Positions 14,956 to 19,121 of a stretch of DNA of 64,000 nucleotides are shown here, one piece after another (within the stretch, counting starts at the first letter, position 1; every line of letters begins with the position of its first letter). The stretch comes from a virus (taxonomy: Duplodnaviria; Caudoviricetes): the IMG/VR virus record IMGVR_UViG_3300034062_005355, one strand, 5' to 3'. Made by a program: the position numbers and the translations under genes. The notes beneath the pieces were generated by a model. The model was not told where the DNA came from, did not search any database, and saw nothing but the letters and a program-made list of their open reading frames with translations.

Positions 14956-15572
14956 TATTTTTCTTTGATATCGTAGTAAAATGAATTACTATCTTCAGTC
15001 ACCCATCTATCAGATTGGTTTTCAACCGATATTGACTCTGTATCAACTTTAAATTGTTTTAAATCTTCAGGAAGTGATTTGGTAACCCAATTACTATCCC
15101 TCCAAAAAAGTCTATTGTTTGGTTGACATAATAAATACCCCTCATCTGACTCAAATATATGTCCACATTTATAATCAGATGGTTCATCGCTATATGGGTT
15201 ATTATACCAATCGACAGTAAACATATATGTCCCCCAAACTTTTGTCCCGTCTCTTAATACTATCTGAGCCCTGTGAAATGCTAAAAAATCATATTCAATT
15301 ACAGAAACGTTCTCACTAAAACAATCCCACAATTGTTTAAAATTGAAGGGGATATCATTGGTTGGAATTTTTGTGTAGATTTCGGATAATGGTACCCTAC
15401 TTCTTAACATACCAGTATCAGTCATAACGTGAAAAGTAAGTATTTGACCACCACAAGATTGAATACCGAAAATGTAAACACCATAATAATCGTTTGCGTC
15501 TTCTTCATTTTTAGTAAAATAAGATTTTTTAACAAATCCTTTAAAGGATGGAATATTTGAATTTAATTTCAT
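14955..15572 (-). CDS. hypothetical phage protein
   Basis: 205-aa ORF. Confidence 0.65.
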   Translation of the reverse strand: MKLNSNIPSFKGFVKKSYFTKNEEDANDYYGVYIFGIQSCGGQILTFHVMTDTGMLRSRVPLSEIYTKIPTNDIPFNFKQLWDCFSENVSVIEYDFLAFHRAQIVLRDGTKVWGTYMFTVDWYNNPYSDEPSDYKCGHIFESDEGYLLCQPNNRLFWRDSNWVTKSLPEDLKQFKVDTESISVENQSDRWVTEDSNSFYYDIKEK

Positions 15573-15750
15573 TTTTTATAGTAGGGTATTTTATATATTT
15601 CATAATATTCGCTTAAACCTCCTTCAAGAGGTGCCAAATCTTTTATTGCCATTTCATATCCATTTTTACCCATTGCAATTTTTAACAACTCTAACCTTTC
15701 TTCTGGTGAGTATTTGATATTATTTTCTTTTATTTTATCCATAATATATT

Positions 15751-16845
15751 TTAATTTGATAATGGTGCTTTAATTGATGGGTGCGATTGATAATCATTTA
15801 AATAAAAATCTTCAAATACTAATTTATCCCAGTTACCACTATTAGGTTGTAATGATGATGGTAATGTTATGGTTGGTAATGAATATGATTCTCTTGTTAT
15901 TTGTTCTTTAGCTTGCTCAACATGATTTGAATATAAATGAGTATCACCTAAGTTACCAATCAATTCATCAGGTACCATATTAACTTCTTTAGCAATGATT
16001 TCAAGTAATAATCCATAAGAAGCAATGTTGAATGGTAAACCTAAAAATGTATCTACTGAACGCTGATTCCACATTAAAGAGATTGCTCTGGTTGGAGTAT
16101 TAGTATAGTCTAGGTATTTCTTTATAATGTCTCTATCATCTCTTTTAATAGCTTCATCAATATCCATATCAATATCTATATTACATAACTTAAGCCTCTC
16201 TTCCATACTCAACTCTCTTGTAAAAAATTGAAAATCAGTATGACAAGGAGGAAGAACCATTTGGTCTAATTCACCAACGTTCCAAGCATTAACTCTATTA
16301 CGTCTTGAATCTGGGTCTGTTTTAAGTAGATTGATTGAGTTTGCGATTTGGTCTATTTCATTCCAATCATTATAAGAATTATAATCAGCCCCGTCTGTAG
16401 TGTAATTACACTCCCACTTTCTCCATTGCTTACCATAAATTGGACCTAAATCACCCCACTTTTTAGCAAACTCATTATCGATTTCGATTCGTTCTATAAA
16501 ACTTTCTTTATTGAGATATTCAAATCCCTCTAATCCGTTTTCCTTATGAGATTGAATTATAGATTTTTCATAATTCTTATAAGCATCACCATTCCAAATA
16601 TTACAACCATTATCAACTAAGTACTTAATATTTGTATCACCTCTCAAAAACCATAACAATTCCGTTACTATTGATTTAAAATGTAATTTTTTAGTTGTAA
16701 GTAAAGGAAATCCTGTTTTCATATCGTGACGGATTTGTCTACCGAATACTGAAATGGTTCCAGTTCCTGTACGATCCATTTTACGGGTACCATTATCTAA
16801 AATGTCCTGTAATAAATCTGTGTATCGTTTATCTAAATTATTCAT
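15751..16845 (-). CDS. thyA: thymidylate synthase with two in-frame insertions
   Basis: DRTGTGT, FPLLTTKK, ELLWFLRG, LPPCH, WNQRSVDTFLGLPFNIASY, GDTHLY, YQSHPSIKAPLS. Confidence 0.97.
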   Translation of the reverse strand: MNNLDKRYTDLLQDILDNGTRKMDRTGTGTISVFGRQIRHDMKTGFPLLTTKKLHFKSIVTELLWFLRGDTNIKYLVDNGCNIWNGDAYKNYEKSIIQSHKENGLEGFEYLNKESFIERIEIDNEFAKKWGDLGPIYGKQWRKWECNYTTDGADYNSYNDWNEIDQIANSINLLKTDPDSRRNRVNAWNVGELDQMVLPPCHTDFQFFTRELSMEERLKLCNIDIDMDIDEAIKRDDRDIIKKYLDYTNTPTRAISLMWNQRSVDTFLGLPFNIASYGLLLEIIAKEVNMVPDELIGNLGDTHLYSNHVEQAKEQITRESYSLPTITLPSSLQPNSGNWDKLVFEDFYLNDYQSHPSIKAPLSN

Positions 16846-17044
16846 ATCTTAATTTTATTTTATCGTAATCGGTATCATACCACTCACCATTCTCTTGTTT
16901 ATGTTCTCTGATAAGTTGTGCTAATAGGATTTCGCACAACCCTACTTCTGAACAGTCTCCTTTATCCCAACCCATCCAATTTTGTTTTGTTATTGGGTCT
17001 TCCATATTTAATAGTGATTCTATTTGGTCTCTTCTTTTATTCAT
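16838..17044 (-). CDS. hypothetical protein
   Basis: 68-aa ORF coupled to thyA. Confidence 0.55.
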   Translation of the reverse strand: MNKRRDQIESLLNMEDPITKQNWMGWDKGDCSEVGLCEILLAQLIREHKQENGEWYDTDYDKIKLRYE

Positions 17045-17381
17045 AACTTTCTAATTTAGTATCGTTGTATGTTATTGTGATTAGTTTTCGTGGATATAGT
17101 GTTGTACTTCCTTTGAGTACTGGGTTGGTTTGATCTACTTGTTCCAATGTTGTTCGTTCTTCAATCTTTAATCCCCACCTTTCAGAAAACTCTGTATCGG
17201 TTTTACATTTGTTGATGAATTCTTCTTGTGTATGATGAATATAATTTGGATAACCTGAGTTAAATTCTAGTCCATTTGATTTGAAATGTTTTTCTCTTTC
17301 CGAGAAAGTAATAGAACCTATTAATGCTTTTGTGTAATTCACATAAACCTCATCCAATAATTCTTGTTGTTCTTTATTCAT
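17037..17381 (-). CDS. ThyA-insert-like protein, paralog A
   Basis: MNKEQQELLDE.Y.NY...EEFINKCKTDTEFSERWGLKIEER...KLITITYND. Confidence 0.7.
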   Translation of the reverse strand: MNKEQQELLDEVYVNYTKALIGSITFSEREKHFKSNGLEFNSGYPNYIHHTQEEFINKCKTDTEFSERWGLKIEERTTLEQVDQTNPVLKGSTTLYPRKLITITYNDTKLESYE

Positions 17382-17584
17382 AACTTTCTATTGTTAGTTG
17401 TTTCTGGTATTTTATTAATAAATGACTTCATTATATTTGGTATAGTATTTGTTTCATCGTATATCACATCATACTCACCATTATTAGACATTATCTTTAC
17501 AAATTCGTCAGATTCTTCTTTTGTTTTTTTTGCGGGAGTTCCATCCATATTAGTAACCCCACAAAATATAATCGGTTTATTCAT
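17378..17584 (-). CDS. hypothetical protein
   Basis: 68-aa ORF between the paralogs. Confidence 0.5.
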   Translation of the reverse strand: MNKPIIFCGVTNMDGTPAKKTKEESDEFVKIMSNNGEYDVIYDETNTIPNIMKSFINKIPETTNNRKL

Positions 17585-17930
17585 AACTTTCTATTGTTTT
17601 ATCGTTGTATGTTATTGTGATTAGTTTGGTTGGGATATTCCATTTATCATAATCTTCGTGTGTACATAGATTATCACCAATCCATTTATAGTTTAATATA
17701 CCATCATTTGTTTCTTTAGGGTGTCTTTTAATATATTCATCACATCTTTCATCTCTGCTCAACTCTCGTTCCTCAATCTTTAATCCCCACCTTTCAGAGA
17801 ACTCTGTATCGGTTTTACACTTGTTGATGAATTCTTCTTTTTTAAGAGATTCTACTTGAGTAGACATTCCGGCAACGATTGAATAATTTTTATATGCCTC
17901 ATCCAATAATTCTTGTTGTTCTTTATTCAT
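17577..17930 (-). CDS. ThyA-insert-like protein, paralog B
   Basis: DEAYKNY...KEEFINKCKTDTEFSERWG...RELSRDER...NIPTKLITITYN. Confidence 0.7.
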   Translation of the reverse strand: MNKEQQELLDEAYKNYSIVAGMSTQVESLKKEEFINKCKTDTEFSERWGLKIEERELSRDERCDEYIKRHPKETNDGILNYKWIGDNLCTHEDYDKWNIPTKLITITYNDKTIESYE

Positions 17931-18285
17931 AACTTTCTATTGTTTTATCGTTGTATGTTATTGTGATTAGTTTGGTTGGTACATTGTGTTTGTCGCACAT
18001 ATAATTAGCAAAATCAAATTCTTCCATATTAGGTGTTAGGTCGGCTATCTTCCATCTTTCCATCATATCTAACTCTCGTTCCTCAATCTTTAACCCCCAC
18101 TTTTCAGAGAATGTTTTATCGTAAGTACATAAATCAACAAACATTTCTTTGTTGGGTTTTCGGTAGGTTGATTTACCATCCAGTCGTTTAACTAAAAGAC
18201 ACATCCCAATAGAATTATCTTTTTCATATTCCTTTGAATAATTCTCATAAGCAACATCCAATAATTCTTCTTGTTCTTTATTCAT
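17923..18285 (-). CDS. ThyA-insert-like protein, paralog C
   Basis: start reassigned to MNKEQ (CAT at 18283-18285) by homology with A and B; NKEMF...DKTFSEKWG...RELDMMER...NVPTKLITITYN. Confidence 0.7.
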   Translation of the reverse strand: MNKEQEELLDVAYENYSKEYEKDNSIGMCLLVKRLDGKSTYRKPNKEMFVDLCTYDKTFSEKWGLKIEERELDMMERWKIADLTPNMEEFDFANYMCDKHNVPTKLITITYNDKTIESYE

Positions 18286-18287
18286 AA

Positions 18288-18662
18288 TTAATCTTTTGTA
18301 TCTGTTATTTCGTAATGTAATAACGCAAACCATAAGTTCTGCAACTGGTGGACGTACTTTATATCAAATGAAATTGGATATTTTATCCCATCATCTTTTG
18401 GGTTAGCACTATCTGTATATTCTTGATAGAAAGACCAGTTTTTAGCCCAATCCCTATATCTGAAACAGAACTTATAATCGTATATTCCTCTACACCAATA
18501 TTCACCATCTATATAAAATCTAAATTTGGTAAACCATTCATCAGTTAGTGGTATACCTTTAATATGGGATAAATCTGATTCCATACTTACACCTTTAATT
18601 TCAAGTATACCACCTAAATTATCAAATACATAATTCCCAATTCTTAATTCTGTTGATTTCAT
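18288..18662 (-). CDS. hypothetical phage protein
   Basis: MKSTELRIGNYV...IKYVHQLQNLWFAL. Confidence 0.65.
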   Translation of the reverse strand: MKSTELRIGNYVFDNLGGILEIKGVSMESDLSHIKGIPLTDEWFTKFRFYIDGEYWCRGIYDYKFCFRYRDWAKNWSFYQEYTDSANPKDDGIKYPISFDIKYVHQLQNLWFALLHYEITDTKD

Positions 18663-18764
18663 GTTATTCTTTATTCATTTTTAATTATGTTTATGCCACA
18701 CCCATTGGTTGCATATACGATATGAATATCGGGTATGCGATAGTTATATTCAATATCAAAAATT

Positions 18765-19121
18765 TTATGGTTTTATAGAAATTGAATTAAACCACTTGAG
18801 TTCAGATGTTAATTCATTCAACTTACCTTCGTATTTAACTATTTTATTTTCGTTCAATGGTTCGGATATTTTATAACCACCATCAATCTTTATATGTTTA
18901 GTTTCTTTTTGATTTAGTTTGGAATGAATATTACCAATCCTCTCATTTATTGATTTAACATTCATATCAATAACCCATCTAACATCATCTATATTATGTT
19001 TAGATAATTCTTCAACAACTCCATTCCATTTAGTAATGAGTTTTGTTTCTAAATCAAAAACTAAACCACGTTGTCCGCCAAGACAACCATCTTCTTCAAA
19101 CCATTCAATTTCTTTTTTCAT
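18765..19121 (-). CDS. hypothetical protein
   Basis: 118-aa ORF. Confidence 0.55.
   Translation of the reverse strand: MKKEIEWFEEDGCLGGQRGLVFDLETKLITKWNGVVEELSKHNIDDVRWVIDMNVKSINERIGNIHSKLNQKETKHIKIDGGYKISEPLNENKIVKYEGKLNELTSELKWFNSISIKP

Follow-up and report, generated by a model that had tools for sequence, protein, structure and literature searches.

What are three free-standing open reading frames (ORFs) that lie upstream of a phage thymidylate synthase (TS) gene, thyA, and resemble pieces of the enzyme encoded there? The question is raised by the window analysed here, a stretch of 64,000 nucleotides (nt) from the IMG/VR virus record IMGVR_UViG_3300034062_005355 (Caudoviricetes), in which an earlier note had read the three ORFs as the two inserts of ThyA fused into one protein, quoting strings that were all found as written in the window ORFs. 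The genes concerned, with the slots of variable content (V1 and V2) that they carry, are these (aa, amino acids; HMM, hidden Markov model):

15751..16845, minus strand: thyA, long-form thymidylate synthase with both variable slots, 364 aa (PF00303, E 2e-94, 316 bits)
16453..16587, minus strand: ThyA insert 1 (aa 87-131), anchors AYKNY and FI..I..D.EFAKKWG, V1 core ~16501-16569
16066..16218, minus strand: ThyA insert 2 (aa 210-260), anchors RELSxEER and (N)xPTR, V2 core ~16096-16194
17037..17381, minus strand: core-less mini-protein 1, 114 aa, matching the family HMM; V1 ~17220-17333, V2 ~17094-17156, short and degenerate, with the RELS anchor missing
17577..17930, minus strand: core-less mini-protein 2, 117 aa; V1 ~17841-17882, V2 ~17640-17744
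17923..18285, minus strand: core-less mini-protein 3, 120 aa counted from the conserved MNKEQ start at 18285; V1 ~18142-18237, V2 ~17980-18054

Judged from sequence, the three ORFs are intact members, kept by purifying selection, of a family of phage mini-proteins that is in effect thymidylate synthase minus its catalytic core and shares swappable cassettes with ThyA, and we think it likely that they serve as non-catalytic scaffolds for recognition modules. A BLASTP comparison of ThyA with the 117-aa ORF gave two colinear high-scoring segment pairs (residues 87-131, E 3e-6, and residues 198-267, E 5e-5), and insert 1 of ThyA matched the other two mini-ORFs at E 5e-6 (120 aa, 17923-18285) and E 3e-4 (114 aa, 17037-17381). 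When 65 family members were compared with 66 ThyAs by hhalign, a single colinear alignment was obtained (probability 99.2%, E 1e-19); it starts at AYKNY, ends with the last strand and leaves out ~75 columns of the ThyA catalytic core, and it bears out the proposal of a diversified stand-alone family homologous to the concatenated ThyA inserts. The accompanying claim, that the same anchors occur in the same order with the core absent, holds for this colinear match but not for ORF 17037-17381 in its RELS anchor. In a cross-BLAST of the excised segments, ThyA insert 1 found family segment 1 in 118/118 cases and insert 2 found segment 2 in 98/98, with zero crosswise matches between segments 1 and 2. 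The match had been thought confined to the two inserts, and both inserts do match, but it also takes in both core beta-strands flanking insert 2 (FQFFT with LKIEE, and AISLMWNQRSVDTF with LITITYNDKTIESY). The TS motifs (the catalytic cysteine PPCH, the dUMP-binding QRSxD and the GD.H.Y core) are missing from all three mini-ORF translations, and none of the three matched PF00303 at E<=1, so that its gathering score was not reached.

Each mini-protein is made up of the AYKNY helix and the long-form small-domain helix pair, joined directly to a core beta-hairpin bearing an insertion, and this hairpin-borne insertion is the one carried by the hairpin in this clade of ThyAs. The family alignment shows a nearly invariant scaffold (the N-terminus, AYKNY, FINKxKTDxEFSxxWG-LKIEE-RELSxEER and NIPTKLITITYNDKTIESYE), and the V1 and V2 regions between these anchors are unrelated in content and length. 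An AlphaFold2 model of the stand-alone 117-aa protein was compact, with a predicted local distance difference test score (pLDDT) of 85 and a predicted template modelling score of 0.70; three helices and a strand lead into a helical V2 excursion, and two strands close the fold. In the ESM Atlas the two clusters nearest to it in shape were long viral thymidylate synthases, at a template modelling score of 0.48-0.50 over 88-89 of the 117 residues, and together with the profile alignment these identify the three ORFs as homologous to part of TS. The compact model and the viral TS shapes also lend indirect support to the suggestion that the two ThyA inserts form one surface domain. Among solved structures Foldseek found no match to the stand-alone model at E<=0.001 and a wide VIA-align search gave a best Z of 3.6, while the family profile had 0 matches to PDB sequences. 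No weight is given to a resemblance of the family N-terminus (MNKEQQELL) to the N-terminal helix of ThyA, which is too short for a test. In some members (L071:2665-3285, L009:3817-4407 and representatives of 160-221 aa) the core-less ThyA domain is preceded by a fused N-terminal extension of 40-105 residues that matches nothing in Pfam.

The family is large, with 5,205 relatives of the 117-aa protein at E<=0.01 in a metagenome protein collection, falling into 623 clusters at 50% identity. It has no Pfam or PHROG match and every cluster member is named hypothetical protein; tblastn with two family members found nothing significant in cultured phages, a literature search found no description of the family and a protein-atlas feature search gave no usable match. 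The closest thyA region is that of Flavobacterium phage vB_FspM_immuto (genus Immutovirus; 71% nt identity over thyA), and at the Immutovirus locus the family HMM matches ThyA itself only. Upstream of thyA in that phage (L001, 6402-7090) are two ORFs of ~112-114 aa, annotated as NrdF-like and PotE-like, names which look spurious; neither ORF matches the family HMM.

How the inserts relate to known enzymes differs between the two. The window ThyA matches solved TSs at E 6e-77, and its alignment to those of S. aureus (4DQ1), E. faecalis (3UWL) and L. casei (1LCA) is unbroken through residues 1-211. Insert 1 lies between the end of the IW(D/N) helix and GDLGP(V/I)YG, with conserved flanking helices, as the small domain of the long-form enzymes does, and by alignment its anchors are those of the classical long-form TS small-domain insert; the idea that insert 1 is a novelty of this enzyme is thus contradicted. 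As in the long-form (Lactobacillus casei-type) TSs, it sits in the same place and its helices (W..AF..Y... and F..RI..D..FA..(F/Y/W)GDLG) align continuously, but in the phage clade its centre forms a slot with ~140 unrelated fillings, and the small-domain helices also occur outside any TS, in the mini-proteins. Insert 2 (residues 211-255), which is placed in the turn of a core beta-hairpin, has no counterpart in any solved TS. ThyAs of this clade are 60-94% identical overall and yet are 319 to 513 aa long, a spread caused by variation in these same slots.

A third insert, near the ThyA C-terminus, is present in ~40/132 ThyAs and likewise has no counterpart in solved TSs. It shares the anchors of insert 2 (here GRELTxEER ... 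IPKRTREP), and 7/40 of its cassettes are of the same type as insert-2 cassettes in ThyA or mini-genes. The window holds a related unit on its own:

15569..15742, minus strand: 57-aa ORF directly 3' of thyA, a stand-alone insert-2-type module (S.EER ... KIP)

This ORF matches the third insert of another phage's ThyA (52% identity over 48 aa, E 3e-16) and the insert-2 cassette of the Flavobacterium phage immuto ThyA (40% identity over 40 aa, E 1e-8). The RELSxEER...IPT unit enters and leaves between neighbouring strands and can therefore be transplanted as a module; it is used in four contexts.

To compare slot contents, V1 and V2 were excised from 409 non-identical proteins and clustered at >=50% identity over >=70% of length. 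The V1 slot held 139 types, 21 of them found in both ThyA and mini-genes, and the V2 slot 136 types, of which 20 were so shared. Contents ranged over 5-77 and 9-63 residues respectively and could not be aligned between types, but within a type dN/dS (the ratio of nonsynonymous to synonymous substitution rates) was 0.18 for V1 and 0.11 for V2, a strong purifying selection which points to a library of discrete, constrained modules and not to loose loops or hypermutation. The statement in the earlier note that the segments between anchors differ in every copy therefore does not stand, as they fall into discrete types, each conserved. The two slots reassort (243 V1 x V2 combinations in 292 proteins, up to 24 V2 types with one V1 type, and 12 four-gamete violations between V1 and V2). 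At the level of the predicted proteins, the census shows that the slots of ThyA and of the mini-proteins draw on a common pool, well over 100 discrete peptide cassettes in size.

Individual cassettes of the window can be followed in the same way. The V1 type of the window ThyA is common to 17 other ThyAs and its V2 type to 6 others, with differing V1 types. Several ThyAs elsewhere hold in insert 2 the cassette of a free-standing ORF, that of the window 117-aa ORF being an example, and the V2 type of mini-protein 3 occurs in one ThyA elsewhere and is identical in an L004 mini-gene. A homologue search with ThyA residues 196-286, for mini-genes bearing the window ThyA's own V2, returned ThyA fragments only. 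Across 15500-18900 in three lake metagenomes (runs X1-X3), sequencing depth over this V2 cassette was ~10 times that over the phage's unique flanks, so many co-occurring phages carry that cassette type.

Traces of exchange are also found at the DNA level. The V2 of mini-protein 2 is 86% identical over 156 nt to a ThyA fragment from another sample, the match ending at the anchors. On two single contigs, ThyA and a mini-gene 0.3-2.4 kb apart have a tract in common (125 nt, V2, 97.6% identity; 137 nt, V1, 94%), with no further DNA similarity detectable between them outside these tracts, which are recent transfers between ThyA and mini-gene. Within the window the anchors of the three paralogs agree over blocks of 36-82 nt (87-97% identity) and their slots have nothing in common, and blocks of this size are ample for ordinary homologous recombination among the paralogs. 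The window thyA and the paralog anchors are 50-89% identical with exact runs of <=10 nt, homology so short that exchange with ThyA is not a ready, programmed process in this genome. These comparisons show, by shared types and sharp tracts, that recombination at the anchors carries cassettes from one paralog to another as well as between the paralogs and ThyA; the exchange with ThyA is seen to be the rarer and mainly visible over evolutionary time. Metagenome contigs of three years contain many alternative joints at the anchors, with short flanks, but these derive from relatives and do not show switching within the lineage of the window phage. One further ThyA (P0132, 443 aa) has an apparent partial N-terminal duplicate ending at the AYKNY anchor and followed by a complete ThyA; the duplicate looks like a recombination product at that anchor.

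Are the mini-genes themselves under selection, and do they depend on ThyA? In the family-only segments, which never enter ThyA, dN/dS was 0.08 for LKIEE, 0.43 for the C-terminus and 0.57 for the N-terminus, and the mini-genes are complete ORFs with a conserved start. Locus context was compared across 72 distinct IMG/VR loci with family copies. One to seven copies lie directly upstream of a long ThyA on the same strand in 37/72 loci. A divergent, insert-less PF00303 enzyme lies downstream in another 14, ThyA lies upstream in 1, no TS lies within 4.5 kb in 9, and 11 are cut short by a contig end; a TS-family gene is thus downstream in 51/61 judgeable loci. Family copies also occur in two phage records (217 and 254 kb, 78-83% complete) in which PF00303 has no match anywhere. 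Because of the purifying selection and the occurrence beside insert-less TSs or without ThyA, the mini-genes appear to be more than mere silent donors. The insert-less enzymes are 276-280 aa long (E 7e-61 for the L022 copy), examples being L022:8676-9506, L023:5436-6272, L027:9165-9995, L044:8630-9463 and L071:3476-4309. In at least 6 loci (L003, 6727-8800, with L019, L038, L056, L074 and L080) a break after insert 1 divides thyA into two ORFs; those of L003 are separated by a 225-aa HNH homing endonuclease gene (phrog_655, E 6e-47), and the C-terminal half opens by repeating the insert-1 helix pair (TKEEF..KTD.EF).

In the window the genes follow each other on the minus strand in the order 124-aa ORF, 120-aa, 117-aa, 68-aa, 114-aa, 68-aa, thyA and 57-aa ORF. 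Those not yet described are:

18288..18662, minus strand: 124-aa ORF heading the array (phrog_10066, unknown function, E 1.6e-18)
17378..17584, minus strand: 68-aa ORF between mini-proteins 2 and 1, read from sequence, no Pfam/PHROG match
16838..17044, minus strand: 68-aa ORF between mini-protein 1 and thyA, with the TATGAATAA overlap at both ends, no Pfam/PHROG match

The same stop/start overlap, TATGAATAA(A/T), is found at every array junction from 16838 to 18290 and reads YE-stop / MN(K/N). Both 68-aa ORFs are unrelated to the mini-proteins. ORF 17378-17584 retains the family 5' start (ATGAATAAA, first 9 nt) around an unrelated body and ends in the family 3' sequence (ACAATAGAAAGTTATGAATAA, last 21 nt), but in a different frame; from this ORF it looks as if entire gene bodies are also replaced between conserved junctions. 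The 124-aa head ORF has a syntenic homologue in locus L003, adjoining a mini-gene and thyA. The window is AT-rich (~30% GC), a promoter and terminator scan found fewer sites in it than in shuffled sequence, and the same DNA is contained in lake-water metagenomes dated 2016 to 2024.

In the explanation that we consider likely, the mini-proteins and ThyA would be expressed from the same early operon, with coupled translation, and the mini-proteins would act as non-catalytic scaffolds displaying swappable recognition modules, with ThyA as one further carrier of the same modules; the recognised partner could be a host factor or a competitor's factor. Several points weigh against this explanation. 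The census covered ~400 of thousands of proteins, and its regex-defined anchors failed in ~10-25% of sequences. Co-resident copies had the same cassette type in 0/56 and 0/37 pairs, where 1-2 would be expected, although this absence of sharing is not significant because random pairs share a type in only 2-3% of cases. The AlphaFold2 model of ThyA itself, made with a shallow alignment, had a mean pLDDT of 64 and a core too poor to show how the inserts pack, and the one RNA run contained very little of the sequence, in a few short contigs that were mostly those of relatives, and being nearly empty gives no support for transcription. The recognition role, which we favour, is moreover one that we infer from the sequences. 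A fuller form of the explanation, in which the essential enzyme ThyA and its core-less paralogs are interchangeable scaffolds of a display system for the library of more than 100 modules, and recombination reassorts these modules to recognise, or to act as decoys for, variable factors of the host or of competitors (such as immune sensors directed at phage enzymes of nucleotide metabolism), is tentative and we put it forward as a possibility that is perhaps more doubtful than probable.

The earlier note had also suggested a recombination-donor role, and this stands in part, as segments are exchanged with ThyA (shared cassette types and sharp single-contig DNA tracts), but a role as pure donor does not agree with the selection in family-only parts, the copies without an insert-bearing ThyA or the short homology in the window. 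We therefore regard it as unlikely that the mini-genes are a silent donor library (pilS- or vls-like) which only supplies segments copied into thyA, varying the enzyme surface. Anchors and cassette types common to ThyA and mini-genes, conversion-like tracts on single contigs and one to seven same-strand copies directly upstream of thyA (37/72 loci) are what such a library would give, but complete ORFs with a conserved start and purifying selection on family-only segments (dN/dS 0.08-0.57) are not, nor are copies beside insert-less TS genes and in large ThyA-less records, anchors in the window that are only 50-89% identical between ThyA and mini-gene with exact runs of <=10 nt, or co-resident ThyA/mini-gene pairs that share types no more than random pairs do. 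Improbable, too, is a role of the mini-proteins as ThyA partners, which would bind phage or host ThyA via the interface hairpin that they retain and control how the enzyme assembles or how active it is. Although two strands of the TS central sheet are retained and linkage and translational coupling to TS-family genes are tight (51/61 judgeable loci, insert-less enzymes included), the outward-facing strand residues of the family are, on our reading of the alignment, polar (K/E/E; T/T/N) and unlike a buried interface, the two large records have family copies without ThyA, and the hypervariable slots are left unexplained.

It is somewhat more improbable still that the cassettes are selfish in-frame modules spread by repair of homing-endonuclease breaks in and around thyA, with the mini-genes and inserts as tolerated passengers. 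One module type does turn up at two sites in ThyA, in mini-proteins and as an ORF of its own, at least 6 loci have a split thyA (once with the HNH homing endonuclease ORF, phrog_655, between its halves), and in T4-type phages endonucleases are known to drive co-conversion of the flanking DNA (PMC2988022); cassettes of one type, however, and the scaffold as well, are under strong purifying selection, the window array has no endonuclease gene and the observed splits fall after insert 1, not at the slots. That the three ORFs are decayed thyA fragments, or similar by chance or composition in an AT-rich genome, is scarcely credible: GC is indeed low (~30%) and the motifs are short, but against these stand a profile alignment at E 1e-19, thousands of intact homologues and dN/dS well below 1.

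The exchange of proposed recognition modules between intact genes has partial likenesses among known systems. Neisseria pilE/pilS and Borrelia vlsE/vls have conserved flanks, variable segments, tandem copies beside the main gene and passage of segments between them, and the mini-genes likewise have flanks and segments in common with the expressed gene. Silent donors are truncated or unexpressed and unselected, whereas the phage copies are complete, selected ORFs (dN/dS 0.08-0.57), the varied protein is a cytoplasmic metabolic enzyme, the cassette types are discrete and unrelated and not diverged alleles, and in the window the homology to the main gene is very short. Diversity-generating retroelements similarly confine hypervariability to one part of a conserved phage protein scaffold, but here unrelated segments of differing length are substituted, each type under purifying selection; adenine-directed variation from one template was not found, as judged from slot contents alone, no search being made for a reverse transcriptase. 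T4-type phages are known for modular shuffling and for homing-endonuclease-driven co-conversion, with genes split by endonuclease insertion (PMC2988022). The T4-like phage context, the recombination-based mosaicism and the relatives with thyA split by an HNH endonuclease gene resemble this, but the units exchanged here are in-frame peptide modules of 5-77 codons and not whole genes, introns or endonuclease genes.

Shared swappable modules are an unusual way of varying a housekeeping protein. Hypervariable, recombining surface modules are familiar from virion and cell-surface proteins that face an opponent; to our knowledge they have not been described for a cytoplasmic housekeeping enzyme. The family is plentiful in lake and other metagenomes, and whether its modules are passengers or recognise partners, annotation pipelines label the mini-genes hypothetical and overlook the link to ThyA. 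Should the modules be passengers of endonuclease-driven repair, they would clearly exemplify in-frame peptide modules of a selfish kind. If instead they recognise partners, the mini-proteins would offer a small natural scaffold that tolerates insertions in two or three slots, and would point to a new layer of phage-host or phage-phage conflict around thymidylate synthesis.

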